From an uncultured bacterium (GTDB lineage: Bacteria > Vulcanimicrobiota > Xenobia > Xenobiales > Xenobiaceae): DNA of 64,000 nucleotides. The translations under genes were made by a program, and so were the position numbers. Position 1 is the stretch's first letter. Every line of letters begins with the position of its first letter. Positions 12,837 to 62,475 of this stretch are shown here, one piece after another. The stretch covers positions 47,491 to 111,490 of the forward strand of contig CAKUBG010000005.1 of assembly GCA_934636825.1 (NCBI GenBank), given 5' to 3'. The notes beneath the pieces were generated by a model. That model was not told where the DNA came from. It ran no database searches and saw only the letters and a program-made list of their open reading frames with translations.

Positions 12837-14714
12837 ATGAAATGTCTGCCTGTTGAAGAATCAAATTGGCGTTGTTTAAAATCTGCTTGTCAAATTGCTG
12901 CTGTTGCCTTTATGGCAAGTTTTATTCTTTATCTTGTAACTTTGGCTCCGGCTATTCCGCCCGGCTTTGATAGTGCAGAATTGATTGGCGCTTGTGCTGC
13001 TGGCGGCATTGCCCATCCTCCCGGCTATCCGCTTTATACTATGCTGGGTTGGTTGCTTTGCTCGTTGGGGTTGGCCGCCCCGGCTCTAACGATGAATGTC
13101 TTTTCGGCTTTGTGCTCAGCTGCTGCTTGTGCTTGTTTAGCTTTCGGCTTATTTTTGACGCTTAATTCCGCTTGGGGAGCTTTGGTTGGCGCTTTCTGTT
13201 TCGCTTTTGCTTTGAGCCCTTGGCGCATGGCAGTTGGAGCTGAAGTCTTTGCTTTGCACTTATTCTTTCTCAGCTTATTGGCGGCTTTGGCGGTAGTTTA
13301 TAAAAAAATGTCTGCTTGGCGCCCTTATATGCTGTGGATTTTGAGTTTCATTCTGGGGCTTTCTTTTTGCCATCACCATACAACGGCGCTTTTTCTTCCG
13401 GGACTGGCTATATTTCTATATCTGAGCAACCAAAGCTATGATTCGTCTTCTGAAAGCAAAGCCTCAAAGCCGAAAGCCAAGCAAGGTGCCATGTTTAGCC
13501 GCTGCGCTGTTATAAGCGTTGCTTGCTTGTGCTTCGTATTGGGATTGCTCCCTTATCTTTGGCTTATAGGTAGGGCACGCTTTTTAACTGCCCAGGCCGA
13601 GCCCTTTGTGGCCTTTAATTGGGGCAATCCCTCAAGTTGGACAAATTTTTGCTGGGTTGTGACGCGCAGCGGCTACGGCAGTTTGCAACTGAGCACCAAA
13701 GGTGACGGCGCTTCCGGGGCGGCTTCACTGGCTTATTGGCTATGGTCATTGGTTTTTAAGCAATTCAAGCTTTTTGCCGCAGCACTGGGGCTGTGGGGAA
13801 TAGCCGTGGCTTGGAAGAAGCAACGGGAATTTTTTTGGCTTTTTGGTTGTCTTTTAGCTTTGGCAGGGCCTATCTGGGCTTTATATGCAGCCCAACCGGA
13901 TAGCGAAGGCTATCAAGAAATGATGGAGCGCTTTTTCTGCTCTTCATATTTGGCCTTTGGAGCCTTTATCGGCTGTGGGGCTGCAAGTTTAACCAATTTG
14001 GCGACACTTAAACAAGAAGCAAAAATAAAGAAGTGCTTGATTTACATTGCTTTGGTGGCTGCTTTGCTTTGGCCTCTGTCGTCTAATTGGAATGGAGCTT
14101 CCGAGCATGGGCAATATTTAGTTAATGATACTCTGCTCTATATGGCTACTTCTATACCTGATAAAGCTGTGGTGGTTGCTCAAAATGATGCTGTTTGTGG
14201 CGGTTTAATTTATGCCAAAGCTGTATTAAAGCGCGATTTTGTATTTATTCCGGTGGGAGTTTGCCATTCGCCCTGGTTTGTAGATTCGTTGCCATTTGCT
14301 TATGCTCAAACTTTAAAAACGCAAGGGCTGGCGGCTATGTTGGATCTGGCTTGGCGTGAAGGACGTGCCGTTTATTTTGACGACGAGCAAACAGCCGGAC
14401 AGTGCGGATTGGAATATGTGCCTTCGCATTATATTGTGCGCCAAGGATTGTTGTTTCGCTATGTAGGCAACGAAGAAAAAATATATGCTTCGGAAACAAA
14501 CCTTCGGCAATATCGCCTCCGGGCGCAGCGTGAGTTGGAAGAAGCGGTTAAGCAATATCATGCCGATTCTTACACAAAAAAGGCACGTCCATTTTGGCAT
14601 AAATTTATGCTCAACAAATGGGAACGTGCCCGCGAAGCTTTGGATGAAAACGCCGAATTAAGCAAAATCGAACAATTTTGCCTACATGCTGAAGAGGCAG
14701 CTAATGAGAATTAG
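12837..14714 (+). CDS. polytopic membrane protein, DUF2723/TMEM260-like putative GT-C glycosyl(mannosyl)transferase, with a C-terminal soluble helical domain
   Basis: About 11 predicted TM helices. The first extracytoplasmic loop carries FDSAELIGACAAGGIAHPPGYPLY (acidic D-x-x-E followed by HPPGYP), which I recognise as the DUF2723/TMEM260 signature. C-terminal ~200 aa are soluble. Confidence 0.55.
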   Translation: MKCLPVEESNWRCLKSACQIAAVAFMASFILYLVTLAPAIPPGFDSAELIGACAAGGIAHPPGYPLYTMLGWLLCSLGLAAPALTMNVFSALCSAAACACLAFGLFLTLNSAWGALVGAFCFAFALSPWRMAVGAEVFALHLFFLSLLAALAVVYKKMSAWRPYMLWILSFILGLSFCHHHTTALFLPGLAIFLYLSNQSYDSSSESKASKPKAKQGAMFSRCAVISVACLCFVLGLLPYLWLIGRARFLTAQAEPFVAFNWGNPSSWTNFCWVVTRSGYGSLQLSTKGDGASGAASLAYWLWSLVFKQFKLFAAALGLWGIAVAWKKQREFFWLFGCLLALAGPIWALYAAQPDSEGYQEMMERFFCSSYLAFGAFIGCGAASLTNLATLKQEAKIKKCLIYIALVAALLWPLSSNWNGASEHGQYLVNDTLLYMATSIPDKAVVVAQNDAVCGGLIYAKAVLKRDFVFIPVGVCHSPWFVDSLPFAYAQTLKTQGLAAMLDLAWREGRAVYFDDEQTAGQCGLEYVPSHYIVRQGLLFRYVGNEEKIYASETNLRQYRLRAQRELEEAVKQYHADSYTKKARPFWHKFMLNKWERAREALDENAELSKIEQFCLHAEEAANEN

Positions 14715-15537
14715 TTAGGCGACGGCGAGCTTGCTCTAAAGATTCGGCGTCATCGATATTATAAGCCGTTTCCGCATAAGGGCTGACCACACCGCAACAA
14801 GGCAACTTCAACAATCTGGCGGCGGCTTCTTCGGCCATAGGAATAGTCAATTTACCTATGAGCAAATAAAACAATGTTTTTAAGCCTAAAATTCTGGCCA
14901 GTTTGAAAGGGTTTTTACGTCCGGCAGTTACTGCTGCCATAGCTTGTTTTATGGCTTCGGCAATATCGGCTCTTAGACAAGTTAAGCCGCCGCCACAGAA
15001 AGTGCCTTCTACCATTTTTACCCAAGTATGGCGTACTTCAGGATATTTTGCTTGAGAAACGGCTTTGTCCAAAAAACCATACCACAAAACATTATGTGGC
15101 TTAGTACTGCATCTATCCAGAAAATCGTCAACGGCTTCTGTAGTTAAAAAAGGTAGATCGCCGGCAACCAACAGTACGGGATCGTGGCTTGAAGGCAAAG
15201 CTTGGAGTCCTGAAAACAAAGATTGTATCAGACTGGAACCAGCCGGAGCCACCTCGTCGACACCTTCCCACTCTGGCCCCAAATCTTCTTTTTTTACTGG
15301 GCTTACTAGGATAATGCGGCGGATACGCTGTGATTGGCGCAAAGCTGCCAAAGTGTAGGCGCTCATGGGTTTATTCCCCAGCATAATATGGCCTTTGCCG
15401 GGTACTTCCGGCTCTGAAGCGGGCAGATCTTTTAGTCGGCCACCTGCCAAAAGAACCGCATCGATAGGTATATCAAATTTGTCTTCGGGGTTTGCTAAAT
15501 TCTTGGGCATTGTTGAATCACTCATTCTTGCACACAT
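14701..15537 (-). CDS. MobA-like nucleotidyltransferase (NTP_transferase_3 family)
   Basis: DAVLLAGGRL...G is the N-terminal GT-A nucleotide-binding signature. Its ATG lies 1 nt after the ispE stop (translational coupling), and its 3' end overlaps the convergent 12837 gene by 14 nt. Confidence 0.6.
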   Translation of the reverse strand: MCARMSDSTMPKNLANPEDKFDIPIDAVLLAGGRLKDLPASEPEVPGKGHIMLGNKPMSAYTLAALRQSQRIRRIILVSPVKKEDLGPEWEGVDEVAPAGSSLIQSLFSGLQALPSSHDPVLLVAGDLPFLTTEAVDDFLDRCSTKPHNVLWYGFLDKAVSQAKYPEVRHTWVKMVEGTFCGGGLTCLRADIAEAIKQAMAAVTAGRKNPFKLARILGLKTLFYLLIGKLTIPMAEEAAARLLKLPCCGVVSPYAETAYNIDDAESLEQARRRLTNSH

Positions 15538-15538
15538 C

Positions 15539-16474
15539 CTAAGCGAAGCGGGTTAAATAGACTCGCCCCAATTTTTCTAAGCTATGTAGCAATTCTGGCT
15601 GAGCTTGGACTTGCTGGTAAATTTTGGGGTTGAGCATAGCAAATATCGTAGAGCCGCTACCGCAAAGTTGGGCTGCTTGGCATCCCCAGGCGAGCAAAGC
15701 TTCTCTTATGGAGGTCAGTTCAGGTTGCATACTTTGAGCGGCTGGGTAGAGATCATTTTTCAATTCGTTGAGAAATAGAACTTGCCATAGGCTGGCATCT
15801 TGGGCATGAGGTGCAGGTTGATTCTCTAAAAGCTTGACTAAATTGGCGGAACATCCCTTAGCCGGGTGGCGTTTTCCTTCAGGCAATTGATCCCAGGCTT
15901 TGTAAACTTCCGGTGTGCTTAGTCCAAAAGGCGGAATGAGCAAAAGAACTCCCCAATCTTTAAAGAGCTCGGGAGTCGGCAACTTGCTCAGTTGCTCGCC
16001 CTTACCTAAACCGCGGGCTGTATTTTCCACCAAACCAAAGGCTACATCTGCTCCCAATTTAGCTGCTTCCGATAATAATACTTCATGGGATAGTTTCAAA
16101 TCATAGAGTTCATTTAAGCCCTTTAAAGCGGCTGCGCAATCGGCACTGCCGCCTCCAAGGCCGCCGCCGGCCGGTATATTTTTATGTAATTCAAAGTGAC
16201 AGGGCAATTCTTGTCCAGTAAGTTTTTGCAAAGCATTATGGGCTTTTAGTACCAAATTGTTTTGATCGGCACTTACTTCAAAACCGCAACCTATTTCGTC
16301 AACTATTTCTAAATCAGTCTTTGGGGCTTTACTTAATAAAAGTTTATCGGCTAACTCTAAACTTTGAAAAATTGTATCTAACTGATGATAGCCATTAGGC
16401 AAAGTATCCAACAATTCTAAAGTCAAATTTATTTTGGCTAGGGCCTGATAACTTAAAACATTTTGATTTTCCAT
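15539..16474 (-). CDS. ispE: 4-diphosphocytidyl-2-C-methyl-D-erythritol kinase
   Basis: GHMP-kinase motif NIPAGGGLGGGSADCAAAL, with the N-terminal KINLTLE typical of IspE. Confidence 0.9.
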   Translation of the reverse strand: MENQNVLSYQALAKINLTLELLDTLPNGYHQLDTIFQSLELADKLLLSKAPKTDLEIVDEIGCGFEVSADQNNLVLKAHNALQKLTGQELPCHFELHKNIPAGGGLGGGSADCAAALKGLNELYDLKLSHEVLLSEAAKLGADVAFGLVENTARGLGKGEQLSKLPTPELFKDWGVLLLIPPFGLSTPEVYKAWDQLPEGKRHPAKGCSANLVKLLENQPAPHAQDASLWQVLFLNELKNDLYPAAQSMQPELTSIREALLAWGCQAAQLCGSGSTIFAMLNPKIYQQVQAQPELLHSLEKLGRVYLTRFA

Positions 16475-16620: not shown

Positions 16621-18663
16621 TTACTCTTCCGAAGTTTCGTCTTTAGCCTCTTTGGTTTTTTCTGTTGGAACTTTGAGAGCCAACTTATAGGCTAAGGGAG
16701 ACTTGAAAGTGGACAGTTGAGCTTTAGCCAACTCTTCAAGTTGAGCAAACTTGTCTTTGTAAATCCAGGTAAAGTTTATCTGGGTACGGCTGTAGAACCA
16801 TACTTCCGAGCCTTTAACTACTGTTTTACAAGTGTAGGAACCTACATCATTGCTTAAAGTCATATCCTGAGGTTGAGCTACCACCTTGCTATCTTGAGGA
16901 AGAATTACATGGTAGCGTATTTCATCGATAAAAGGAGCATCAAAACGAACAGGATAGAGGCGAGAAGCGCTATTGAGGCCGGCTTGCAAAGACTGACCTT
17001 GGGTTATGGGCAAAGGAGTCTCAAAACGATCCCTTTCGCGACTGTAGCGAGCGTAGTTGGCAAATTGTACGGAAGTACCTACGGTTACCGGCGCCTGGTT
17101 GTCCATTTCGGCGGGGAAGAAGTTGGCATAGGGAATTGTTTGGAAGCAGAAGTTGCTGTTAAACTTACCTATAATCCAATTTACCATTTCTTTGCGCTGG
17201 GCATCAGTTAAAGCTTGAGCTTGTCCTTCAGCGGTAAGCAAAATGTTAGCACGGGGGCCGTTGTAGGTAATGTCGGCATTGAGCTGACCTATGCCACTGG
17301 CTTCGATACGTCCCTCCATATTGTAAGAACAAATATTGTCTTCCGGAGAACCTATAGGAGCGCTTATCAAGCGGCCGGGCTTAGAGCTATGAGGCGAAGG
17401 AAGCTCGAGCATAGCTGAGCCTTGCCAACCTAAGTTGGGCGCATTAAGAGCAGAGCCTGGCAAAGAGGGATCGATCCACCAAGTTTTGCCGCCGGGATCG
17501 GAAACTTTGAGCAAAAATTGGCTAAAATAGGTAGGTATGGGAGGTAATTCAGCCATGGTCTGCAGATCGGAACTGGCAGCCATATATACGTTAACTCTCA
17601 AACCGGCCCTTTTTAAAAGGGCTCCGGTCAGATAAGCTGCGTCTTGATAGGTGAGCAACTTGGAAGCAGTGGCTTGCTTGAAATCGACAGAACGCCAGAT
17701 ATTTTGATCTTTATCTAAGACAGAAAACTTGGACATATAACCGAGTACGTCTTGTATGCGCTGTTCGGCAGGTTTACCTACCGAAGTGATGCGGCTGCAA
17801 AGCATACTCAAAGAGGCGTCGCTGTCGGAAGTATTTTTATCCCAAACTTCGGCAGCCCATTTGCTGAGATCTTTCCAATTGGCAAAACTAGAAGCAGCTA
17901 CATATTTGTAGTAGTTGAAAGACGAGGGCATACTGACATTGCTAGTAATAGCGTCAAAAGCTTCCTTCGTTTCCCAGAAGTAGGTACGCTTTCCTTTGCT
18001 CTCGGTTATTTTGGGAGAACTCAGGTAGGACACATTGGAAAAAGTGTAGGCTTTTTCTTGTGAAGGTACGCTCACTTTGTAAGTAGAGTGCAAAATGGGC
18101 AAATCATTTTGCAAGTAAGAACAAGCCCACCATTGCTTATCTTTTCTGGGCGCATATTTAGTCTTGACGGAATATTCAATTACTGATCCCACTTCAACGT
18201 TAGGAAATTCCGCTATGTAAATTTGACGATCTTGGTAAATAGGAGCACCATTGATGGCAGCTATAGTTTTGAAATTGGCTGCTGGCACTTCGGTGACTTG
18301 TCCATTAGGACTAATCGTGCGGGCGTATTCAAATTCTATAGTTTCAAAAGAAGCGTCAAAATTTCTAGGGTAAAGACGGAAAAGTTTTACGCCTTCTTCA
18401 TTAAGAAGCTTAATAGCGTTATGCTCTGTCGCTTCAGCGGAATAATCTTCGTTGAGCTGATAAGTAAGGTCATCTTCCAGAATAAGGGCGCAAGCATTCG
18501 GATATTCTTTCAATCCTGGGGAATTAAAGAAACGACTGTCCGGTTTGGAAGGCGAATCGGCAGCTTGCACACTCAAAGGAAGTGTTGCCAATATAAATGC
18601 GGCTGCATACAAAAAGTGTTTGAACTTTTTGCTAAGAATCTGCGGCCTAAAATTAAACTTCAT
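16621..18663 (-). CDS. secreted protein with transglutaminase-like core whose catalytic Cys appears substituted (DUF3857/TGase-like), hypothetical
   Basis: Signal peptide MKFNFRPQ...LPLSVQA/AD. The segment TYQDAAYLTGALLKRAGLRVNVYMAAS resembles the transglutaminase-core G-x-C-x-x-F...ARxV motif with Cys replaced. ATG at 18663 has a GAGGA RBS, and the track start at 18681 is a non-ATG codon. Confidence 0.45.
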   Translation of the reverse strand: MKFNFRPQILSKKFKHFLYAAAFILATLPLSVQAADSPSKPDSRFFNSPGLKEYPNACALILEDDLTYQLNEDYSAEATEHNAIKLLNEEGVKLFRLYPRNFDASFETIEFEYARTISPNGQVTEVPAANFKTIAAINGAPIYQDRQIYIAEFPNVEVGSVIEYSVKTKYAPRKDKQWWACSYLQNDLPILHSTYKVSVPSQEKAYTFSNVSYLSSPKITESKGKRTYFWETKEAFDAITSNVSMPSSFNYYKYVAASSFANWKDLSKWAAEVWDKNTSDSDASLSMLCSRITSVGKPAEQRIQDVLGYMSKFSVLDKDQNIWRSVDFKQATASKLLTYQDAAYLTGALLKRAGLRVNVYMAASSDLQTMAELPPIPTYFSQFLLKVSDPGGKTWWIDPSLPGSALNAPNLGWQGSAMLELPSPHSSKPGRLISAPIGSPEDNICSYNMEGRIEASGIGQLNADITYNGPRANILLTAEGQAQALTDAQRKEMVNWIIGKFNSNFCFQTIPYANFFPAEMDNQAPVTVGTSVQFANYARYSRERDRFETPLPITQGQSLQAGLNSASRLYPVRFDAPFIDEIRYHVILPQDSKVVAQPQDMTLSNDVGSYTCKTVVKGSEVWFYSRTQINFTWIYKDKFAQLEELAKAQLSTFKSPLAYKLALKVPTEKTKEAKDETSEE

Positions 18664-18764
18664 AAACAAAATCCTCGACAAACTAAAACAGACACACTGC
18701 CGGTATTTAATCCTAACAGGCGCCTATTGTTTCGTGTATCTTCTCTTTTTCAAGAAAAAATTTG

Positions 18765-19061
18765 TTATTTGCCCTTTTTCTTATCGCCTTTAGTCTCGTC
18801 CGATTTATCGAGTGAAGTGTGACCGCTCTTCTGACTGGGCTTAGGAAGAGAAATTACTTCTTCCTCTAAGCCGGCCGCTCTGGCTACGTCATCGTCAGTC
18901 GCTCCTTGTAAATTTGCCAAAACTGTTAATAAGATGGCAGCTTTTTCCAAATTTTCTTCTATGGCGTGCAGACGAATAAGAATGATGACGGGAACGGTTA
19001 CACCGATAATTACCAGCGCAATGGCGCATAGCAGCAATGCGGTGCTAATAGTTGTAGACAT
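18765..19061 (-). CDS. small single-pass membrane protein with a Lys-rich C-terminal tail, hypothetical
   Basis: 98 aa with one TM (LLLCAIALVIIGVTVPVIILI). GGGAGG RBS 9 nt upstream. Confidence 0.5.
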   Translation of the reverse strand: MSTTISTALLLCAIALVIIGVTVPVIILIRLHAIEENLEKAAILLTVLANLQGATDDDVARAAGLEEEVISLPKPSQKSGHTSLDKSDETKGDKKKGK

Positions 19062-19245: not shown

Positions 19246-21336
19246 CTATTTTTGAGCTTTCGTTTTAAAGTGGCGCGTGTCATATATTTTTAATAGGTAT
19301 AATTTTGGGGTAACTTCTCCGGGAATTAGGTCTTTTTCGTAAGAATATTCCTCTATAATCTTTACCGGCGGTCCAAAAATAACTTCTAGCCTTTGACAAA
19401 TATCTTTAAAGACAGCTTGTCCCTGATCCGGGGCTACTGTATAAGCTCCACTGCGGGGGCGGTGACTACACAGCCGCTCACTTACAGCAATTAAATTGTA
19501 ACCTTCATGTTGTATAGCTTCCAAATCGTTGCGACTAAAATGACGGGGTATGTATTGACTGCCCAAGTCACTTATAAAGCCCAGAAAGCTTTGGTCTACC
19601 AAAGCTTGTTTGTCAAAGAGCCAAACGTCTTTACCGCTATTGTAAAGATGGCGCGAAAACAAACCTCTGTTGCGATCTATAACTAAGCGCAAATCCACCA
19701 AAGTAAGATCTGGGTCATAGTAAAAATTATGGTTATAATCGCTGGTCGCTTGCCAAGGTCGTCGCCCTAGAGGAACAAAGATCGCGCTTTCTGATAAATG
19801 TTGTTGTGACTGGGCGTAATTGCTTATGGCTGGAGCGAGCTTGGTAGAGGGCCAAGGCAATTGCTTGCGTTGTATGGCTTCGCCAAAAGGCAAAATAATA
19901 GCGGCAACCGTTATTATAGCTAACAATTGAGGAGAAAATTTTTTGTTATCTCGCAGTGCTTCCAGGCTCATGGCTACACAAATCGCTGCGGCAATGGCAA
20001 ATAATAATATAGTTTGGCATGGCCAGAACAACTTGTTTAGGAGCGGCATATGGTCGCAAAAAAATTTGTAAGGCAAGGGAATAGGGTGGCCTTGCCAGCA
20101 AACCAATTGGGCTTTGTGCTTGAGAAACGGCCCTAAGGGCAGCCAATAAAAGGCTGCGGCGGCCCAACACCAAAACTTCAGCCGACTCTTGTTTTTAAGC
20201 TCGGCTTGCGTGCAAAGCAACAAAAAAGCCAGCACGACCATTAGGCTGATATTGGCTGAAAATGTCGCTTCTGTGGGAACGCTTTGCGGAGGATTGATAG
20301 GAGTGCTTAAGCCTTTGGTCGGCTGAACGAAAGCGTAAAAAGCTTCACACGAATAGGCAATGCTCTGTCTGTAAAGCGTTGACACGTCGGGAACGCGCCC
20401 AGGATCGGGACGAACCAATCCGGGAATATTGTCGTGAGAAAATAGACGCGTCAAGTAAGGATGAGCAGCTGGCAAAATTATTACACTGAAGCTTAAAACA
20501 AACAGAAGCAAGCTGCTCCAAGTTTCAATATTAAATTTCAGCTTAAATGAAGGAAGCTTTTTCTCCCTTCCCCAACAAAGGGCCGCCGCTGTGGCATGAT
20601 AGAGCGCAAAGAACAACACAAAAATTACGGCAAAATGGCCATAAAACCAATAATTGCAGGCTGTCAGAGCTAGGAGGGTTCCGCAACGGGCCCATTTCCC
20701 CGGATCATTTTGTCCCCAAGCTAAAAGAAAACTGCCAATAAAAAAGACTGGCCAAAAAGTTTGCGCTTCGATAATGCGTCCTGTGCTTAACAAGAACCAT
20801 TGCCAAGGGTTAAAGGCAAAAAGGAGCCCTCCTAAAAAAGCTGAGCTGGGACGACAGCCCATTTTGCCGCAGAGCCAACGCGCAGCCAGAGCATCGGCCA
20901 CTACGATAAGGATACACTTTACGTTGTAATAGAGGGGAAAGCCAAACAATTTGGCTAGAGGCCAAGTCCAGACAAAATCCAGACCGTTAGCTACACTGCT
21001 GCGTTCTCCAAAACTGACTAAATGATTATATAGTTCCGGAAGTCTGGCTAGAGATCCGGTTAGGCCGTAATTAGTGATAAAAAAGTGGAAAGTTTGATAA
21101 TAATATTGCTCCCAGGAATGATAGATCCAGAGCGTTTGTGCTGTATTTTCGTGACCCAAATAGCCTATAACAGCTTGTTTAGCTTGCCAAATAAATGAAC
21201 CGGCGCACAAGATAGACAGCAAAACATAAAAAATCGCCGAGAAGCGAAAGTCGCAAAATGAATCCGCGTGGGCAAAAAAATCTTTTACGGCAAATGTGCT
21301 GTGGGCTGAAGTTTGGCTTTTATTTTCGTCTGGCAT
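19246..21336 (-). CDS. large polytopic membrane protein (696 aa), GT-C-like architecture, paralogous to the 22567 gene
   Basis: At least 12 TM helices. It has a W-rich first loop (TLWIYHSWEQYYYQ) and a ~200 aa C-terminal soluble domain. Family not identified. Confidence 0.5.
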   Translation of the reverse strand: MPDENKSQTSAHSTFAVKDFFAHADSFCDFRFSAIFYVLLSILCAGSFIWQAKQAVIGYLGHENTAQTLWIYHSWEQYYYQTFHFFITNYGLTGSLARLPELYNHLVSFGERSSVANGLDFVWTWPLAKLFGFPLYYNVKCILIVVADALAARWLCGKMGCRPSSAFLGGLLFAFNPWQWFLLSTGRIIEAQTFWPVFFIGSFLLAWGQNDPGKWARCGTLLALTACNYWFYGHFAVIFVLFFALYHATAAALCWGREKKLPSFKLKFNIETWSSLLLFVLSFSVIILPAAHPYLTRLFSHDNIPGLVRPDPGRVPDVSTLYRQSIAYSCEAFYAFVQPTKGLSTPINPPQSVPTEATFSANISLMVVLAFLLLCTQAELKNKSRLKFWCWAAAAFYWLPLGPFLKHKAQLVCWQGHPIPLPYKFFCDHMPLLNKLFWPCQTILLFAIAAAICVAMSLEALRDNKKFSPQLLAIITVAAIILPFGEAIQRKQLPWPSTKLAPAISNYAQSQQHLSESAIFVPLGRRPWQATSDYNHNFYYDPDLTLVDLRLVIDRNRGLFSRHLYNSGKDVWLFDKQALVDQSFLGFISDLGSQYIPRHFSRNDLEAIQHEGYNLIAVSERLCSHRPRSGAYTVAPDQGQAVFKDICQRLEVIFGPPVKIIEEYSYEKDLIPGEVTPKLYLLKIYDTRHFKTKAQK

Positions 21337-21371
21337 GATTTCACAATTGGCAAAGTGTTGGCAAAATAAGG

Positions 21372-22451
21372 CTATCTAACTTCAGGAGGTGGCGGCCCTT
21401 CTCGTTCAATGGGAGGAATGGCGGGGTTTAATTCCTTACGCAGAGCAGCCTCTGATTCCGATAAAGCAAGAGATTCTTTTATTAGGTGCAAAGTTTTAGG
21501 GTAGAGTAAATCCTGTACAAACCGTTTATCTAGTGCTTTTATTTCTGGCTCTCGAAGCAAAACTTCCCATTGCTTTTCTGGGATTAACTTGACGGCTTCG
21601 TCATGTAAAATGCTTAAACGCAATGACGATATTCTGAGTCTTTCCAGTATAATTAAGCATTCTTGAGCTTGTTGAGACTGAAGTTTTGGGTGGGCAATTT
21701 GGCAAAGGTTCTGCAGAGAAATAAGTATTCTCAGAGGATGAAGTTCCAATTGAGAGGCTTTTTTTAGCAACCGGTGACGCTCTGGCGAAAGTGCAAAACC
21801 TGGGGCGGAGGACAGTGGCAAAGGCGCTGTATTTAAGGGAGGTAAACTGAGATTGCGATATAGTCTCAATGTTTTCTCTTCAGCGGCTATATCTTTTCGA
21901 TCGCCTCGGAGCACTTCTGCAAGTGAATCCAGATCTTGCAAGCGACCATAAGCGGCCCAGTGGGCATTTTTCTTCAAAACAGAAATTGCTTTAGTATAAG
22001 TTCTTATATCCGAACCTTCGGAGCCTCCACAAGAGTAAGGAGTCAATGAATCATCTAGACTGAGAAAAACTCGCAGTTGTTCGGTAGAGAGGCGCTCATA
22101 TAACTGAGAATATAGGTTTAGACTATTATCGACTTCTTGTTCGGCCAAGTTTTCCAATAAAGCAAAATGTTGACTGTCGGCGACCGATAGCGGCCAGAGA
22201 CCTTTTTTTTGTAATAGCTTTTGACAGCGCTTAAGTCCGAGCCAGTCTAGGCAAACTTGGCTATTTTCTACATTTCTTAGCGGATTAAAACCGCTACCTT
22301 TGGTAAAAACATAGCCTTCGCGACGCATTTCATATCCGTCTACACTTTCGCGACAGCTGCAAGTGAGTAAAGCCAACTCCACTACAAGTACAAAAGTTAA
22401 ACTGACAATAGCTATAAAAACGTATTTTTTTGAAGTTTGGCTCGCCGTCAT
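21372..22451 (-). CDS. N-terminally anchored hypothetical protein (359 aa)
   Basis: Single N-terminal TM (FIAIVSLTFVLVVELALL) followed by a Leu-rich helical domain. No known motif. Confidence 0.45.
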   Translation of the reverse strand: MTASQTSKKYVFIAIVSLTFVLVVELALLTCSCRESVDGYEMRREGYVFTKGSGFNPLRNVENSQVCLDWLGLKRCQKLLQKKGLWPLSVADSQHFALLENLAEQEVDNSLNLYSQLYERLSTEQLRVFLSLDDSLTPYSCGGSEGSDIRTYTKAISVLKKNAHWAAYGRLQDLDSLAEVLRGDRKDIAAEEKTLRLYRNLSLPPLNTAPLPLSSAPGFALSPERHRLLKKASQLELHPLRILISLQNLCQIAHPKLQSQQAQECLIILERLRISSLRLSILHDEAVKLIPEKQWEVLLREPEIKALDKRFVQDLLYPKTLHLIKESLALSESEAALRKELNPAIPPIEREGPPPPEVR

Positions 22452-22566
22452 ATGAGTGCAAAGCCCTTCGTATAGGGGAAAAGGAAAACCTGCTTTAGAA
22501 ATAGCAGCCTTCTTTATGGTGGTTTAATACTGATTTGAAGCCTATTTTTTGAGCGCAGGTTAATTC

Positions 22567-24546
22567 ATGAATATTATGCAAAGCGAGTCGCCGACTAATG
22601 ATAATAAGCATATGGAGCAAATCGAAAGCCTAACCGGAAAAGCGGTTGGCCATTTCCCCGTACAAATTGAATTTATTTTCGTCGGCCTTTTTTTGGCTTT
22701 GCTTACAATTGCCGCTCTTTGGCCTGCACCAATCCATTTAGAGGAAAATTTAATAGGCGATTATCAAGGTGATTTTTGGAAGCATTTATGGGGCCACTGG
22801 TGGGTACGTGATAGTCTGGCTAAGGGACAAATACCTTTATTCTGCGATTTACTCAATGCTCCACGAGGCGGTTATTTGTTTATTGCCGATCCTTGCAATG
22901 CTATTTTCAGTTATGTCTTTTCCAACTTTGTCGGTTTAGCTGGAGCCTACAATTTAACGATAATTTTTAATTTATGGCTCGGTTTGCTGGCAGCTTGGTT
23001 ACTGGCTCGTTATTTTGTCAAGGACGGAGCTTGCGCTTTGGTGGCAGCTGTTATTTACGGTCTTTCCGCTTATGTGCTTAGTTATCCGGTCTCTTCCGGA
23101 GTAACCGAAACGTTAAATACCGCTTGGGCGCCGTTGTATATTCTTTTTTTACATCGCCTTTTGAAAAATGGTCGAATAGGAGATTTGCTTGGCGCTGCCT
23201 TATTTTTTGCGCTTACCACTTTTTCGTGTTGGTATTATGGCGAATTTATGGCGGTGTATACCAGCTTGGCTTTGGGGTGGTCTTTATTTGAGCTTTTGCG
23301 CACCTTTTGGAAAGGGCGGACTTTCTCTATATCCTCTTTAGTACGTTCGTCTAGAATGAGAAAATCTTGGCGATGTTGTTTACTTGCAAGCTGGAACGAG
23401 TGCGCATGGATATGGAAAAAGCAAATTATAAAAACTGCGGCGGCAATTGTTATAGGGGCGATTATTATTTCTCCTTTTGCTTGGCTTTTCAAGATGACCG
23501 TTTCTAATTCGGCTAATATTGTTATGCCGCGCAAAGCTCCCAAACGTTCCATATTTAACTTCAAAGATTATTTGGGCCAAGCTCCAGAAAAGAGCGTAAA
23601 TCAACATGGCGTACGTGGTTTTCACAATTATACAAATTTGTTGGGCTTAATTTTGCCGGGCAAGGGTAATGCCACAGTTACGTCTACGGTAGACAGGTTA
23701 GTCAGAGTCCATTATTTGGGATGGATAGCTTTACTGTTGGCTTTTGCAGCTTGGCGTCGCCAAACTTGGCGACGAGAATTTTTGTATTGGATAATTGTAT
23801 TCGGATTTTTTATCGCCCTTTCTTTAGGGCCGCGAGTTGTTTTTTCTGATTTTTCTGAGGCAGGCTTTGTCAATCCGTTTTACCTTTTGATGTTTCTCGG
23901 CTTTCCATTCTTTTATAATTTGGCCATTCCGTTTCGCTTTTTGATGTTGGCTCTTATAGGCTTGTCGATAGTGGCTGCTTACGGAAGTAAAGCACTTTGG
24001 GCTGAAGAAGCGCCTGCTCGCAAGTGGTTTTTTTGTTTATTGGCTTCGCTAATGATCTTTGTAGAAACTATTTTCGTATCTCCTTTACCTTGGCCGTTGC
24101 CGATGAGTCCGGCTCAAACTCCGGCTTATTATCAAATGCTAGCTGAGGATCCGCGCTCTTATGCCATAATAGACTATCCTTTCGAGAGGCCCGGAACTAT
24201 TTTGGTACCTGGCGAATATTTCTATTACCAAACTGTACATCGCAAGCGCATACCTTATCGAACCAGTGGAGTTTTGAGCCCGGAGGTAGTGCATAATGCT
24301 TTCATGGAAGAAGTCTTGTTAGCTCAGAGAGGCATTAAACCTTCTTCACAAAGTGAAAGACGATTGCGTGAAGGAGCCAAAGCTCTGTTTGATATGGGGT
24401 TTTATGCTTTTATTTTGCATGAAAATTTGCTGGCCGAATTTTCTGCTCAAGATATAGAAAGTCGTTTGACGCCGATTTTGGGAAAGCCGATGCGCTTCGG
24501 CGACGGTTTGATTGTCTATAATTTGGATTCGCTAAATGATAAATAA
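22567..24546 (+). CDS. large polytopic membrane protein (659 aa), GT-C-like architecture, paralogous to the 19246 gene
   Basis: Similar topology to the 19246 protein and the same style of first-loop motif (GDFWKHLWGHWWVRD). It is transcribed divergently from the 22451 gene. Confidence 0.5.
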   Translation: MNIMQSESPTNDNKHMEQIESLTGKAVGHFPVQIEFIFVGLFLALLTIAALWPAPIHLEENLIGDYQGDFWKHLWGHWWVRDSLAKGQIPLFCDLLNAPRGGYLFIADPCNAIFSYVFSNFVGLAGAYNLTIIFNLWLGLLAAWLLARYFVKDGACALVAAVIYGLSAYVLSYPVSSGVTETLNTAWAPLYILFLHRLLKNGRIGDLLGAALFFALTTFSCWYYGEFMAVYTSLALGWSLFELLRTFWKGRTFSISSLVRSSRMRKSWRCCLLASWNECAWIWKKQIIKTAAAIVIGAIIISPFAWLFKMTVSNSANIVMPRKAPKRSIFNFKDYLGQAPEKSVNQHGVRGFHNYTNLLGLILPGKGNATVTSTVDRLVRVHYLGWIALLLAFAAWRRQTWRREFLYWIIVFGFFIALSLGPRVVFSDFSEAGFVNPFYLLMFLGFPFFYNLAIPFRFLMLALIGLSIVAAYGSKALWAEEAPARKWFFCLLASLMIFVETIFVSPLPWPLPMSPAQTPAYYQMLAEDPRSYAIIDYPFERPGTILVPGEYFYYQTVHRKRIPYRTSGVLSPEVVHNAFMEEVLLAQRGIKPSSQSERRLREGAKALFDMGFYAFILHENLLAEFSAQDIESRLTPILGKPMRFGDGLIVYNLDSLNDK

Positions 24547-25642
24547 GCTAATCGTAAAATATCGAGAATCTGCTAGCCCTTTGCTATTACGCGAATTAAG
24601 GCTTGTTTTAGCTCAAAGCAAGCTTTGCTTTTGGGAAGCTATTTTACCTATCTTTTGGTCGCTTTATCTTGTTTGGAGTTTTTGCTTGGCTTGGGAAGGC
24701 AGCTACCAGCCTGTAATCTCTTGCTCACATATGCTATGTTGGTTGACTGCTGCTTTTATCTTAGGTCAATATCTCGGATTAGCTCCGCGTTTAGCTGCTT
24801 CAATTTGCTCAGATCGCCGCTTGGGCATATACAAAATGCTTAGCGTTACCCCAAGAGGTTGTTGCCGAAGTTTGTCCTTAAAATTGTTGGCTTTTTCAGC
24901 TCCATATCTAATTGAATGGTGCTTATTATCTTTAAGCGGTGCCATTTTCTGTATGTTTACCCCTGAACTTAACGCGGAAATTGTGCTAGCCTCTTCTATA
25001 TACAGTTTGTTGTCTTTGCTAGTAGCCACCTTTGGGGGCACTTGGTGGGGTATCTCTTTTCAAAATACTTCAGATAAGTGTACCGCTTCGTTGCGCAAAT
25101 TGTTAATTACGGCAGCTGTGGGAGCTTTTTGTTTGCACAATTTTTGGCATTTTAGTCAAATGGAAACAGTCTTAGTATTATGTAGCTTGTTAATCATCCT
25201 TTGGAGTGGATCGATACGCATATTTTGGAGTGACTTTTCTATAACTTTAGCTTTATTATTGATAGGATTGTCCTTTGTACCTTCTATAGGTCACTCAGAC
25301 TGGCCGTTGGAAGATTGTTTTAATCCAGTTCGTGTAAGTTTGGCTGGCATGTATGCTCTCGATAGAGAGGCTTTGCATAGTGATAATTTGGCTTCGGATG
25401 GTGCCTATTCTATTTTGCGCGAACATTTAGTCGGCAGCCAAGAATCTCCATATTTGAGTCAGTTGCTCCATCTCTATAACGAAGCTTCTCAAGTGAGTCA
25501 AGAACAAATTTATGCTCAAGTGCGCAGTGAAGCTGAAATCTATTTATTAAGAAGTTGTGGGGCCAATCTTGTTGCATCTGTTGTTTGCGCTCTCGGCGCT
25601 TGTTTGATGCTGCTGCGCTTACGCTCAAGCTTTGAAGTATAA
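24536..25642 (+). CDS. polytopic membrane protein (368 aa), hypothetical
   Basis: 8-10 predicted TM helices. Its start overlaps the preceding gene by 11 nt, suggesting an operon. Confidence 0.45.
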   Translation: MINKLIVKYRESASPLLLRELRLVLAQSKLCFWEAILPIFWSLYLVWSFCLAWEGSYQPVISCSHMLCWLTAAFILGQYLGLAPRLAASICSDRRLGIYKMLSVTPRGCCRSLSLKLLAFSAPYLIEWCLLSLSGAIFCMFTPELNAEIVLASSIYSLLSLLVATFGGTWWGISFQNTSDKCTASLRKLLITAAVGAFCLHNFWHFSQMETVLVLCSLLIILWSGSIRIFWSDFSITLALLLIGLSFVPSIGHSDWPLEDCFNPVRVSLAGMYALDREALHSDNLASDGAYSILREHLVGSQESPYLSQLLHLYNEASQVSQEQIYAQVRSEAEIYLLRSCGANLVASVVCALGACLMLLRLRSSFEV

Positions 25643-46361: not shown

Positions 46362-46509
46362 GCTGTCTAGGCATTGTCGATATGGGGGGAAAATTGCAGG
46401 GGCTCTTCCGTTACTTTTATGAGTATCGGTGGGCTCTTGTGCTTTTTTATGGTTCTGTTGGGAAGTTCGTTCTTTAGCAAATTGATTATTTTTTTTAGAG
46501 GTGAACTTT

Positions 46510-49500
46510 ATGAAAGCAGTGATTATGGCCGGTGGTGAAGGTACTCGCTTGCGTCCTTTGACAGTAAGCAGACCTAAGCCTATGGTTCCTGTATGTAACC
46601 GCCCGGTTATGGAATATACCTTAGACTTGCTCAAGCGCTACGGAATCGATACGGTTGTAGTTACTTTGCACTATAAAGCTGAAGATATTATTTCTTACTT
46701 CGGCGATGGAACTGACTTCGGCCTTAAAATTGTTTACTCTATCGAGAGTTCCCCTATGGGCACTGCTGGTAGTGTCAAGCAAATTCAAGATACTGTTGGA
46801 GACGATACTTTTTTAGTAATTAGCGGTGATGGCTTAACCGATATAGACTTAGGACGAGCTGTCGCTTTTCATAAAGAAAAGAGATCTACAGCTACCCTGG
46901 TATTAATGCGAGTTAATAACCCCTTAGAGTACGGAGTAGTTATCACTAACGAAAATAATGCTATCGAACGCTTTTTAGAAAAGCCTTCCTGGGGTGAAGT
47001 ATTCTCTGATCAAGTCAATACCGGCATCTATATATTGGAGCCTGAAATTTTTAACTTGATGGAGAAGGGGCGCAGCTACGATTTCTCTCGTGATATATTC
47101 CCCAAACTTTTAGAGCAGAAAAAAGGCTTATACGGCTATGTGGCCGGAGGCTACTGGTGTGATATTGGTGATATTGACCACTATGCTAGCGCCCACCGTG
47201 ATATGTTTGACGGAAAAGTGCTTCAGGAAATGGTCGGTACCCAGCGTACTCCCGGTGTGTGGATTGGCGAAGGTACCAAAATAGATCCTACGGCTGTTTT
47301 AGAAGCACCTTTGATGATTGGTCGCAACTGTCGTATTGGTGCCCATACCTACATTTCTTCTTATACTTGTATTGGTGACAATTGCATTATCGAAGAAGAT
47401 GTCAATTTGCAGCGCGATATTATTTTTAATAATGTCTTTATTGGCAGCAAGAGCAATTGCGTGGGAGCGATTATCTGTCGTCAGTGCACTATAAAATCAG
47501 GGGTTACTTTAAATGACAGTTCCGTTATCGGTGAAAATGTCTTTATCGGTCGCGGAGCTACGGTGCGCAACCAAATTTCAATTTGGCCGGATAAGAATAT
47601 CCCTGATGGTTCCACTATTTCTGAAAACTTAGTTTGGGGTAAGAAAAACTCTGAAACTCTCTTCGGTCGCGATAGTATTACCGGTTTGGGCAATTTGGAA
47701 ATCACTCCCGAATTTGCTATGAAATTGGGGGCTGCTTTCGGTACGTCTTTGCCTAAGGGCTCTACAGTGACCGTTTCTCGCGATTCACGTCCCGTTAGCC
47801 GTTTGATCAACCGTGCTATTATTAGTGGTCTAAGCTCTGTAGGTGTCAATATCCTCGATTTGCGCCTTTTGCCTGCTGCTGTCAGCCGCTATATTGTCAG
47901 TGTCACCAAAGCTGTTGGTGGTATCCATACTCGCGTATATCGCGATGAGTCACGCTTAGTAGAAATTGAATTCTTCGATGAATCAGGTATCAATATTGAC
48001 AAAATCCGCCAGCGCAAAGTAGAAAACTCCTTTGTGCGCCAAGACTTCCGTCGTACCGATGTCGATGAAGTTGGTATTATCAGCTATTTGGATACTAGTA
48101 TTGATAAATATATTGAAGGATTTATCAGCCACTTAGATACCAAGAGTATAAAAGAGGCCAATTTTAAAGTCGTTATTGACTACTCTTATGGTACGGCTTG
48201 CCAAGTTTTGCCTTTCATTCTCAACCGTTTGGGTGTAGAAACCGTATCTATCAATGCCTATGTAGACTATGACAAAGCTAGAGAAGCGCAAGAAAAGAAA
48301 GATGAAGCTTTGCGCCAGCTTTCCAATATTGTTAAGCCTATTGGAGCCAACTTGGGCATTATCATGGATGCCGACGCCGAGCGTATCTACTTAGTAGATG
48401 AAGAGGGCACAGCTATAAAAGGTACTAACTTGCTGGCTTTGGTAGCTCTTATGGTTTTCAGACGTAATAAAGATGCTTTGGTCGCTGTGCCTATCAGTGT
48501 GCCTGGCATTATGGAAAAATTGGCCCAACAGCAGCATGGCAAAATTATCCGCACCAAAACGGATTATCGCTCTATTATGCACAGTGCAGTAGTCAGTGAA
48601 GGGCGTATTGCCTTGGCCGGTACCTCTTCCGGAGCTTTTGTTTTTCCCAAATTCTCTCCCGGTTTTGATGCTATGTTCCTTTTGGCTCAAATGCTGGAAA
48701 TGATGGCTTTCGATAAGCGTAAGCTTTCCGAAATAGCTAAGGCTATTCCGCCTCACTATTCACTTTCCGGCAGTGTTGAATGCAATTGGTCGGAAAAAGC
48801 TAAGGTTATGCGCCTTTTAGTAGAGCGTTATCGTGACGAAAAGTTGGAACTTTTAGACGGTGTGCGTATCGATTTTGATGATGATTCCTCTATTTTGATG
48901 GTGCCTCATCCTTCTTTGGCTCGCATTAACGTTTGGACTGACGCTTCTTCTAAAGAAAGAGCTAAAGCTCTTATGGAGCGGGCTCGCTTTGTTATTCCTC
49001 AATTGGCTAGCGCCGATGAAAATGCTGTGAAAATGGAGCGGCAAGAGGACGATCAGCACAAAATGATTAGTCCTACTACTAATATTTCGGAGGAAAGAGC
49101 TTTCCATTTTTGGATACCCGGACGCTACTTAGGAGTGCAAGTGCGCAGCTTGCGCAGTTTCGTTGATGTTTTACATTATATAGAAACTGCTTCTTTGGAA
49201 TATCACATGGAACGCAACGATTTTGCTAATTGGCTCAGAACTGAACTGGGGCGTTATTTAGTCGCTTTGGATTTGGAGCAAATAAGCAAAGCTCGCTATA
49301 AAGGAGAAGAATTACGCCGCCATATTTTGGAGTGTTTCGGAGAAGCTACTTCTTCAAGTTCTGCGACTGAGCAAGCAGAAGGCGACGAATTGGAAGAAGC
49401 CCATTTAAAAATAGATGATGCTCCGGCAGTAAAAACTATAGGAGGCATTAAGTTCGCCCCGCACTATCAGAGCGATGACAATGAAGTTGCCGACTCTACA

Positions 49501-49644
49501 AAAGGTGCAGAATCTAAAGAAGAAGTCTCAACACAAAATAATTCGGCTGTAATAGTGCATGAAGCTTCTGCTATAGAATTGAGTTCCAAGCAAGATGGAG
49601 CCTTAGAAGAAGATTCTGTATCTGGTGCTAAGGCCGAACAATAA
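46510..49644 (+). CDS. fusion protein: sugar-1-phosphate (mannose-1-P-type) nucleotidyltransferase, left-handed beta-helix, phosphohexomutase (PGM/PMM) domains and a ~220 aa acidic C-terminal extension
   Basis: N-terminal MKAVIMAGGEGTRLRPLT (NTP_transferase) followed by hexapeptide repeats. The PGM/PMM metal loop reads GIIMDADAERIYLVDEEG, but the canonical phospho-Ser loop GGIMITASHNP is replaced by GGIHTRVYRDE. GAGGTG RBS upstream. Confidence 0.78.
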   Translation: MKAVIMAGGEGTRLRPLTVSRPKPMVPVCNRPVMEYTLDLLKRYGIDTVVVTLHYKAEDIISYFGDGTDFGLKIVYSIESSPMGTAGSVKQIQDTVGDDTFLVISGDGLTDIDLGRAVAFHKEKRSTATLVLMRVNNPLEYGVVITNENNAIERFLEKPSWGEVFSDQVNTGIYILEPEIFNLMEKGRSYDFSRDIFPKLLEQKKGLYGYVAGGYWCDIGDIDHYASAHRDMFDGKVLQEMVGTQRTPGVWIGEGTKIDPTAVLEAPLMIGRNCRIGAHTYISSYTCIGDNCIIEEDVNLQRDIIFNNVFIGSKSNCVGAIICRQCTIKSGVTLNDSSVIGENVFIGRGATVRNQISIWPDKNIPDGSTISENLVWGKKNSETLFGRDSITGLGNLEITPEFAMKLGAAFGTSLPKGSTVTVSRDSRPVSRLINRAIISGLSSVGVNILDLRLLPAAVSRYIVSVTKAVGGIHTRVYRDESRLVEIEFFDESGINIDKIRQRKVENSFVRQDFRRTDVDEVGIISYLDTSIDKYIEGFISHLDTKSIKEANFKVVIDYSYGTACQVLPFILNRLGVETVSINAYVDYDKAREAQEKKDEALRQLSNIVKPIGANLGIIMDADAERIYLVDEEGTAIKGTNLLALVALMVFRRNKDALVAVPISVPGIMEKLAQQQHGKIIRTKTDYRSIMHSAVVSEGRIALAGTSSGAFVFPKFSPGFDAMFLLAQMLEMMAFDKRKLSEIAKAIPPHYSLSGSVECNWSEKAKVMRLLVERYRDEKLELLDGVRIDFDDDSSILMVPHPSLARINVWTDASSKERAKALMERARFVIPQLASADENAVKMERQEDDQHKMISPTTNISEERAFHFWIPGRYLGVQVRSLRSFVDVLHYIETASLEYHMERNDFANWLRTELGRYLVALDLEQISKARYKGEELRRHILECFGEATSSSSATEQAEGDELEEAHLKIDDAPAVKTIGGIKFAPHYQSDDNEVADSTKGAESKEEVSTQNNSAVIVHEASAIELSSKQDGALEEDSVSGAKAEQ

Positions 49645-61578: not shown

Positions 61579-62475
61579 TTAGTCTCTGAGGTTGAACTCG
61601 GAAGTGATCATGAGATGGTCTGAAGCGGTGGAAGATACCCAACGAGTGTCGGTGCTGTCAGACTGAGTGTAACGGTGCACTTGGGAGCTGACCAAACGGT
61701 TGGACATGGACTTCGGGAAGATCATGTGGTCGAATTGTTCGGGAGCGAAACCGTTGTTTCTCTTGGGGTTGGCAGGCCAAGTGTTGCGCTCGGAATCGGG
61801 TTTGCCAGCTAAGCTATCTACCCACTCTTCGCGGCCGCCGCCGGGATTAAGAACGGCTTGTACGGAAGCGTCGTCGGTGTTGTCATTGAAGTCGCCGGTG
61901 AGGACGAACAGACGGCCAGGGAATTGCTTCATTTCGGTTTCGGCGATGTCACGCATGGCGCGGCCTTCGCTCAAACGCTTGGTGTCGGAGCTGACGTGGC
62001 CGGGAGCGGAAGGTCTTCTGGACTTGGAGTGAGTGGTGTATAAACTGACGTCGGCGCCGGGCTTACCATCAACATCGATATCGACGCGGAGGAAGTCGCG
62101 GCTAAATTTAGTGTCGCCGCTGCCATCGGCTAAGGGGAAGGTTACGTCTTTGTGAGAGACGACTTCGGTGAAGGGGTATTTGGAAATAACAGCTACGTTT
62201 ACGCCGCGACCGTCGTTACCGGGAACGTGAGCTACATACTTGTAGTCTTTGCTTAAGCCACGAGTTTTCATGAACTCGGTTAAAGTCTCTTTGGAAGTGC
62301 ACTCTTGTAAAGCAACTACGTCGGCGTCAGCGCGTCTAATATTTTCGGCCAAAGCGTCTAAAGAGCGCTCGCTCTTGACAGGAGTGCGACCGCCGCCGGC
62401 TTTTTGCACATCGCGCTCACCGAACATGTTCTTTACATTGTAAGTACCGATAGTTACAGACGTTTTGCCTATCAT
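61579..62475 (-). CDS. endonuclease/exonuclease/phosphatase (EEP) family protein
   Basis: IGTYNVKN...DVVALQEC near the N-terminus and C-terminal SDH (ASDHLMI) are typical of the EEP fold. Confidence 0.78.
   Translation of the reverse strand: MIGKTSVTIGTYNVKNMFGERDVQKAGGGRTPVKSERSLDALAENIRRADADVVALQECTSKETLTEFMKTRGLSKDYKYVAHVPGNDGRGVNVAVISKYPFTEVVSHKDVTFPLADGSGDTKFSRDFLRVDIDVDGKPGADVSLYTTHSKSRRPSAPGHVSSDTKRLSEGRAMRDIAETEMKQFPGRLFVLTGDFNDNTDDASVQAVLNPGGGREEWVDSLAGKPDSERNTWPANPKRNNGFAPEQFDHMIFPKSMSNRLVSSQVHRYTQSDSTDTRWVSSTASDHLMITSEFNLRD

Follow-up and report, generated by a model that had tools for sequence, protein, structure and literature searches.

Membrane-embedded glycosyltransferases of the GT-C superfamily build or decorate N- and O-glycoproteins, teichoic acids, arabinogalactan and lipid A; several of them serve as drug targets or determine how phages and the immune system recognize the cell. 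An acidic residue in the first extracytoplasmic loop is the catalytic or metal-binding residue of these enzymes, as established for PglB, ArnT and the protein O-mannosyltransferases (PMTs), and paired paralogues such as yeast Pmt1-Pmt2 (family GT39) and mycobacterial EmbA-EmbB (GT53) act as hetero-oligomers. In the usual logic of the GT-C pathways, polyprenyl phosphate is loaded by a cytoplasmic GT2 enzyme and moved by a flippase, after which the GT-C enzyme transfers the sugar outside (PMC8035078). In this study we analyzed two genes, herein referred to as A and B, that are located between positions 19246 and 24546 of a 64,000-nucleotide (nt) stretch of DNA (hereafter the window) from an uncultured bacterium of the family Xenobiaceae (contig CAKUBG010000005.1; for coordinates see Table 1). 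The curated families nearest to A and B by sequence are YfhO/GtlB (PF09586), which belongs to the Gram-positive multi-component transmembrane glycosylation systems, and the uncharacterized DUF6311 (PF19830). We propose, with moderate confidence, that A and B are anciently diverged paralogous glycosyltransferases of the GT-C(A) type, which depend on lipid-linked sugars and work together on an envelope acceptor.

Profile-level homology and common fold of A and B

The initial annotation considered A and B as paralogues and named pairwise alignment as the check that could refute this claim. By that check the claim fails, because the best BLASTP alignment between A and B (18 identities among 57 positions) has an E of 0.047 and is not significant. 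The paralogy is visible at the profile level only. For each protein its own set of homologues was collected (26 for A and 37 for B), and profiles from alignments of 19 A-type proteins (A1) and 18 B-type proteins (A2) were compared with each other using hhalign. The two profiles aligned with a probability of 99.9% (E 6.5e-32, score 259.6) over 532 columns, colinear from the first transmembrane (TM) helix through to where the C-terminal domain ends. The controls with reversed profiles stayed far below this, with scores of about 25 (E 0.05-0.1). Block-shuffled profiles recovered local pieces only. Since the reversed profiles fall to this low score and the shuffled ones align only locally, the signal between A and B is not one of hydrophobic composition.

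The view that A and B are unrelated membrane proteins, alike in nothing more than hydrophobic composition, finds support in the BLASTP result, but it is refuted, with a negligible probability left to it, by the difference in score between the true and the reversed profiles, by the full-length colinear alignment that includes the soluble C-terminal domain, by the superposition of invariant Gly and Trp residues, and by the same fold in both predicted models. Judged from the profile comparison, A and B are very distantly related paralogues. Trp/Tyr-rich motifs had been noted after the first hydrophobic helix of both proteins, and these were indeed found at residues 68-81 of A (TLWIYHSWEQYYYQ) and at residues 68-82 of B (GDFWKHLWGHWWVRD). 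In the profile-profile alignment, G58, W70 and W75 of A superpose on G64, W75 and W79 of B, each of them invariant within its own family, and E63/N64 of A aligns at D69 of B. By this alignment, the Trp-rich first-loop motifs of A and B are homologous.

The prediction that both proteins are polytopic with at least 12 TM helices agrees well with the AlphaFold2 models, which show about 13 membrane helices each; a Kyte-Doolittle scan at a strict threshold detected only about 9-10 segments. In the models of A (predicted local distance difference test [pLDDT] 76.6, predicted template modeling score [pTM] 0.83) and B (pLDDT 81.7, pTM 0.85), the first TM helix (approximately residues 30-51 of A and 32-50 of B) is followed by a first loop of helical structure, a long mid loop that is partly disordered and a C-terminal alpha/beta domain. 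A soluble C-terminal domain of about 200 amino acids (aa) had been assigned to both proteins; this size holds for A, where the domain is about 205 aa and probably extracytoplasmic, but not for B, where it is only about 155 aa. The two C-terminal domains were aligned with each other by hhalign. In structural comparison, B matched STT3B (score 20.4), AglB (18.6), AftD (18.2), Pmt4 (18.1), PglB (16.8) and ArnT (15.8), and Foldseek agreed with the GT-C matches. A polytopic membrane core matching that of solved GT-C enzymes was found in the predicted models of both A and B. The GT-C-like reading of the initial annotation is thereby supported at the fold level, and the models support the description of A and B as GT-C(A)-fold membrane proteins.

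Conservation of the A-B gene pair

For the analysis of gene order, one genome per species was scanned for the B-family motifs, and all open reading frames (ORFs) of the loci obtained were scored with the A and B profiles. A total of 64 loci were identified, 60 of which carry a clear B-type gene. The loci came from Xenobia/UBP9, Myxococcota together with 'Deltaproteobacteria', other bins labeled Pseudomonadota, Chloroflexota, Armatimonadota, Bacillota and Omnitrophota. An A-type gene adjoins the B-type gene in 42 of the 60 loci, in tandem in 33 and divergently in 9. In the tandem pairs, A follows B on one strand, and in about half of the cases the stop and start codons overlap by 4 nt. All nine divergent pairs are those of Xenobia, where Y and B are followed by a divergent run of X, A and the genes for a small TM protein, the DUF3857 protein, IspE and a nucleoside triphosphate (NTP)-transferase; this synteny extends down to about 40-50% identity, with variation in Y and in the exact neighbors.

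Two further profiles, tA and tB, were built from the pair partners outside Xenobia only. With hmmsearch, B of the window scored 318 bits against tB versus 48 bits against tA, and A scored 75 bits against tA versus 56 bits against tB. With hhalign, tA gave a score of 476 to A1 versus 267 to A2, and tB gave 1015 to A2 versus 316 to A1. In both comparisons, A and B of the window were thereby matched with the correct partner. In a neighbor-joining tree of 54 sequences and 543 columns, for which DUF6311 and YfhO-type sequences were used as the outgroup, the A clade was recovered in 100 and the B clade in 87 of 100 bootstraps, the branching order matched inside both, and the whole A/B group was apart from the outgroup in 69 of 100 bootstraps. 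Because the A and B clades are separate and have matching branching orders, the sequences indicate that the duplication is old, predating the spread of the pair, and that the two genes were inherited together as a unit. Both the 42 loci and the tree show the two paralogues conserved together, as in the hetero-oligomeric GT-C pairs.

The initial annotation had remarked that duplicated GT-C-like enzymes of one locus often differ in acceptor specificity. In a reading along this line, A and B are independent GT-C enzymes with different donor or acceptor specificities, their adjacency being a leftover of duplication without functional coupling. In many bacteria, several GT-C enzymes are indeed encoded at unlinked sites and have targets of their own, for instance YfhO, YkcB and YkoS of B. 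subtilis (PMC8035078), and the TMEM260-like third GT-C gene nearby (12837-14714), as well as about 10 loci that carry B alone in spite of having room for A, could be taken in the same sense. We nevertheless consider this reading unlikely, since the remnant of an old duplication would be expected to have dispersed, yet A and B are adjacent in 42 of the 60 loci and in several phyla, with the stop/start overlap in about half of the tandem cases and the matching branching orders as additional points against it. Adjacency across phyla since an ancient duplication suggests that A and B work together and are not independent alternatives.

Two loci carry additional relatives. Three B-like genes are present in one locus (L048, 5917-14255), and another (L004, 3387-19286) holds a single A-type gene, two more paralogues and a long ORF for which a score to the B profile was likewise obtained.

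Among the genes surrounding the 33 tandem pairs outside Xenobia (e.g., L021:491-11586), the most frequent is a lipoprotein-like gene of 297 aa, divergent from B (30/33), followed by a small GT2 gene (24/33), a 452-aa protein of unknown function (24/33), an OmpA-family/TSP3 protein (22/33) and a B12-binding radical S-adenosylmethionine (SAM) enzyme (20/33), and occasionally gmd. This neighborhood looks like an uncharacterized envelope gene cluster of diderm bacteria, and its GT2 gene fits, by analogy, the scheme of GT2, flippase and GT-C described above. The relatives in L004 are located amid genes for GT2, polysaccharide deacetylase, GDSL lipases, carbamoyltransferase and a PMT_2 protein, and a GT4 gene is found near the pair in L001.

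Placement of A and B among the GT-C families

Neither A nor B matched any model of Pfam-A or NCBIfam, even at E 1, and a search of the Protein Data Bank (PDB) sequences with the profiles of A, B and the broad B family gave nothing meaningful, even at E<=10. With respect to the individual families, YfhO (PF09586) was matched by neither A nor B at E<=1, and by 3 of 18 and 5 of 56 B-type relatives (best E 6e-8). DUF6311 (PF19830) was matched by neither A nor B nor any of 56 sampled B-family members (E<=0.01), and PMT/PMT_2 (PF02366 or PF13231) was matched by neither A nor B. Weak matches to PMT_2 (2e-5) were given by 2 of 19 A-family members, A-family matches to DUF6057 were also observed, and a few B-type proteins weakly match PTPS_related, DUF2079 or PMT_2. 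One relative is named 'glycosyltransferase family 39 protein, partial' in the database.

A hidden Markov model search with the B profile identified 15,694 cluster representatives (50% identity) at E<=1e-3, of which 7,697 remained at <=1e-10 and 1,877 at <=1e-30; the matches are mostly full-length (560-650 aa). The proteins that the broad B profile matched at a distance bear either DUF6311 (E 1e-65 to 1e-20) or YfhO (E 1e-20 to 1e-11). These comparisons place A and B in a large GT-C family that stands beside DUF6311 and YfhO, outside the curated models. The database names of the family relatives retrieved were all 'hypothetical protein', DUF6311 is mentioned in no paper that we found, and a conserved bacterial pair of the A/B kind is likewise undescribed in the literature found.

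The closest named relatives of the two proteins are those of 'Candidatus Bruticola sp.' (62-74% identity), a genus of the class Xenobia within Vulcanimicrobiota, and other close relatives came from metagenome bins of the primate or human gut and of the rumen. Three contigs (L012, L016 and L019) are labeled 'Riflebacteria' or 'Burkholderiales', and their B proteins are 49-96% identical to B of the window; for comparison, the identity is 72-74% for B of Ca. Bruticola, and UBP9 bins are equally distant (51%). These labels are probably errors of binning or taxonomy.

Conserved residues and a proposed mechanism

The first-loop motif of A is G58-x2-G61-x-E63-N-T-x-Q67-T68-x-W70...W75, and that of B is G64-D-x-x-G-D69-F-W71-K-H73-x-W75-G-H-W78-W79. 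In A, residues E63, Q67, T68, W70, W75, N117, D120, N176, P177, G186, R187 and K406 are conserved in all 19 family members, together with D543, E620, R621, C623 and H625 of the C-terminal domain, and E190 is also invariant. E63 is kept in the Xenobia A proteins, in three distant A-family members and in the A-type partners of the tandem pairs outside Xenobia. In B, D69 is present in 18 of 18 members of the close family, and an Asp or Glu occupies this position in 54 of 56 diverse family members. Among the same 56 proteins, high conservation was also observed for H73 (49), W75 (54), D108 (47), E181 of the SGVTE motif (53), R457 of the IPFRF motif (50) and E500 (Asp or Glu in 55), and, within the C-terminal domain, for Q555 (53) and H558 of the YYQTxH motif (56); D536 and H618 of this domain are also conserved.

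A first-loop Asp is clearly aligned in most DUF6311 and YfhO-type sequences of the outgroup, and E63 of A lies within one residue of the Asp that is kept in B, DUF6311 and the YfhO-type relatives. Both proteins have a conserved acid in the first extracytoplasmic loop after the first TM helix, and, as far as the alignments indicate, E63 of A and D69 of B fit the pattern expected of the GT-C catalytic or metal-binding acid, for which they are the candidates. Because this acid is kept in both proteins, neither paralogue looks like a dead copy.

The conservation of A bears on a further alternative, in which B is the sole enzyme and A is a non-catalytic GT-C-fold partner serving as a scaffold, acceptor-binding or regulatory subunit. 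PIG-U is a known partner of this kind in the glycosylphosphatidylinositol (GPI) transamidase, and both PIG-U and GAB1 were among the structural matches. A also evolves faster than B: over the same lineages the identity is about 39-40% for A versus 51-52% for B, the branches of A are longer in the tree, and across phyla the scores are 450-570 bits for B and only 140-190 bits for A. In addition, the E181-type acid of the second motif is replaced by Gln in the A-type proteins outside Xenobia. However, E63 is invariant throughout the A clade (19/19 plus the A-type proteins outside Xenobia), and the invariance of D120, N176-P177, G186-R187 and other polar residues is unlike that of a decayed active site, so that we regard a purely non-catalytic role of A as distinctly improbable.

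In the mechanism proposed for A and B as cooperating glycosyltransferases, each protein would work at the outer face of the cytoplasmic membrane, where it would receive a sugar from a donor linked to polyprenyl phosphate. The acid of the first external loop (D69 of B and E63 of A), located at its beginning and just ahead of the Trp-rich helix, would act as the catalytic base or a metal ligand, and R457 of B may bind the donor phosphate. The sugar would then go to an envelope acceptor (polymer, lipid or protein) engaged by the extracytoplasmic C-terminal domain, which in B, with Q555 and H558, may help to bind this acceptor. The GT2 neighbor in 24 of the 33 tandem loci and the conservation of R457 in 50 of 56 family members point indirectly to a polyprenyl-(di)phosphate donor and to extracytoplasmic transfer, as far as we infer from gene content and alignment. 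A and B may function jointly, through successive steps on a common acceptor or as a hetero-oligomer by analogy with Pmt1-Pmt2 or EmbA-EmbB; joint action is proposed because their genes are still neighbors after a duplication older than the separation of the lineages in which they occur.

Several points weigh against this proposal. The glycosyltransferase activity of A and B is predicted from the modeled fold and from residue conservation, in a family of which no member has been studied; the placement of D69 and E63 in the active-site cavity comes from the alignment; and the physical complex of A and B is a hypothesis by analogy. An adjacent A-type gene is missing from 18 of the 60 loci, several of which are truncated contigs and one of which (L020) has its A-type gene 3.4 kb upstream; about 10 of these 18 have room for it, and B can apparently exist alone. 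The scan of the ORFs of the window, from which 57074-58813, 61579-62475 and 62764-63993 were left out, detected no GT2 and no GtrA/Wzx-type flippase, and tblastn with the GT2 of the tandem loci and the other conserved neighbors outside Xenobia gave no match in the window.

A bolder extension of the proposal can be offered only tentatively, as a possibility about which we are doubtful. A and B might form the core of an undescribed but widespread envelope glycosylation machine, which would be a two-step relay or a GT-C enzyme that is an obligate heteromer. The pair would have been kept from a time before the Vulcanimicrobiota (Xenobia) and Myxococcota-type lineages diverged, and lineage-specific accessories would adapt it to different envelopes. 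The accessories would be X and Y in Xenobia, and the lipoprotein, the OmpA-like protein, the GT2 and the B12-radical-SAM enzyme elsewhere.

Organization of the locus and neighboring genes

The coordinates of the genes, domains and motifs are summarized in Table 1.

Table 1. Features of the A-B locus and its immediate surroundings (positions in the window).
Feature	Position	Strand	Description
Gene A	19246..21336	-	696 aa; GT-C-fold membrane protein (predicted); faster-evolving paralogue
A first-loop region	21094..21165	-	Residues 58-81, first extracytoplasmic loop; invariant E63 and W/Y-rich helix TLWIYHSWEQYYYQ
A C-terminal alpha/beta domain	19249..19869	-	About residues 490-696; from AlphaFold2 secondary structure and invariant columns
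Gene X	21372..22451	-	359 aa; one N-terminal TM helix, remainder mostly helical, proline-rich C-terminus
X/B divergent intergenic region	22452-22566	.	115 bp; between the start codons of X and B
Gene B	22567..24546	+	659 aa; GT-C-fold membrane protein (predicted); slower-evolving paralogue
B first-loop region	22756..22812	+	Residues 64-82, first extracytoplasmic loop; D69 and W-rich helix
B C-terminal alpha/beta domain	24076..24543	+	About residues 504-659
Gene Y	24536..25642	+	368 aa; polytopic membrane protein
Small single-TM protein	18765..19061	-	98 aa; downstream of A
DUF3857 protein	16621-18681	-	686 aa, exported; DUF3857 E 6e-29 and a weak DUF3858 match

The long ORFs of A and B were confirmed at the outer coordinates given in the initial annotation, but the head-to-head arrangement described there was not, because the region 19246-24546 contains three ORFs, with X intervening between A and B, and a fourth, Y, overlaps its right-hand edge. 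Likewise, the 115-bp gap that had been taken as a promoter region common to A and B separates X from B. Since only 35 nt separate the stop of X and the start of A, A is probably co-transcribed with X as the second gene of an X-A operon, and Y, the start of which overlaps the end of B by 11 nt, is probably co-translated with B. The layout is that of two divergent units, X-A and B-Y.

The intergenic region presumably holds the promoters of both units. It is largely conserved, most strongly in the first ~60 bases, in two genomes with B proteins only 83-86% identical. Within it are two short inverted repeats, CCCTTCGTATAGGGG (22463-22477) and CTGCTTTAGAAATAGCAG (22490-22507), which are possible operator sites. 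No credible Rfam match was found in this region, and the fold z-scores of -0.3 and -0.4 indicate an unremarkable RNA stability.

A gene of the X type is located upstream of the A-type gene in 5 of 5 Xenobia and related lineages checked. The positional counterparts of X in L001, L005, L006 and L007 are 279-369 aa in length and 20-41% identical, with D-W-x-G-L and other scattered invariant residues in common. X is fast-evolving, and BLASTP between X and its L001 counterpart was not significant. Y is restricted to the closer Xenobia relatives (24-34% identity). For both X and Y, no match was found in Pfam, NCBIfam or by structure, and the PDB profile search gave nothing meaningful. X could be an accessory factor or a substrate, and it is conceivable that Y is a flippase or a partner of B. 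A remote homology of X to the lipoprotein-like gene found outside Xenobia was considered and rejected, since the hhalign E of 0.086 equals that of the reversed control.

The 98-aa protein downstream of A has positional counterparts of 85-86 aa in two related genomes and no Pfam or NCBIfam match, and it is uncertain whether it forms a part of the A/B unit. In every Xenobia locus that was examined, synteny with the GT-C pair extends to the DUF3857 protein, for which a role as an acceptor or envelope partner is conceivable. Farther downstream, a GHMP kinase (15539-16474, -) and an NTP-transferase (14701-15537, -) were considered as a sugar-activation module, but this was rejected after the kinase was identified as IspE of the methylerythritol phosphate (MEP) isoprenoid pathway (TIGR00154, 162 bits versus a cutoff of 138.7). 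The NTP-transferase is MobA-like and only faintly IspD-like (31 bits versus a cutoff of 181), and may be something other than IspD. These two genes are also syntenic with the GT-C genes across the Xenobia genomes.

The third GT-C gene of the window, TMEM260-like (12837-14714, +; PF11028, E 5e-21), is syntenic in a Ca. Bruticola genome (L007); the TMEM260 family is that of a eukaryotic protein O-mannosyltransferase. At a distance from the pair, an ORF of 1047 aa (46501-49644, +) encodes a fusion of a sugar-1-phosphate nucleotidyltransferase, a hexapeptide repeat, a phosphohexomutase (phosphoglucomutase/phosphomannomutase [PGM/PMM] I-III) and DUF5752. This is an unusual all-in-one protein of sugar-nucleotide synthesis and could be a source of glycosylation donors. 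The rest of the 64-kb window is ordinary chromosome, including gap-pgk-tpi, fusA, thrS, proS and flagellar rod genes.

Comparison with known glycosylation systems

The best overall structural matches were those to the oligosaccharyltransferases (OSTs) STT3, AglB and PglB (GT66), which have in common with A and B about 13 TM helices and a C-terminal extracytoplasmic alpha/beta domain. Unlike these enzymes, A and B have no WWDxG in either C-terminal domain and no STT3 or OST match by sequence, including the STT3 model of Pfam, and the identity is 7-13%, the likeness being at the superfamily level only. The slightly better scores with the oligosaccharyltransferases arise because of the shared architecture. 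We consider it very improbable that one or both proteins are oligosaccharyltransferase-like, in the sense that a glycan assembled beforehand on polyprenyl diphosphate, and not single sugars from polyprenyl-monophosphate donors, would be transferred to proteins.

With Pmt1-Pmt2 and EmbA-EmbB, A and B have no relationship at the sequence level. They are without the MIR domains of the PMTs and without the large carbohydrate-binding domains of the Emb proteins.

The YfhO-type and DUF6311 proteins resemble A and B in the first TM helix, the first-loop Asp followed by an aromatic helix, the polytopic GT-C core and the extracytoplasmic C-terminal domain. By analogy with YfhO, a GT2 would make the donor, a C55-phosphate-linked sugar (C55-P-sugar), which would then be flipped to the other side of the membrane (PMC8035078). 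Unlike the YfhO systems, no csbB/gtrB-like GT2 or GtcA-like flippase was found next to A and B in this locus, and the obligate-looking pairing of A with B is not described for those systems.

Through A and B, access is gained to a very large GT-C family of about 15,700 representatives (50% identity) that is annotated as 'hypothetical'. Since the family is typically a conserved two-paralogue unit, the pair offers a testable hypothesis of a heteromer or a relay for envelope glycosylation, relevant to Myxococcota-like bacteria and to the uncultured gut-associated Xenobia. This argues for curated models of the A and B subfamilies. Compared with the systems described so far, the pair is an extension of the well-known GT-C superfamily and not a new kind of system, and its uncurated family and two-paralogue module are what is new relative to the literature found.

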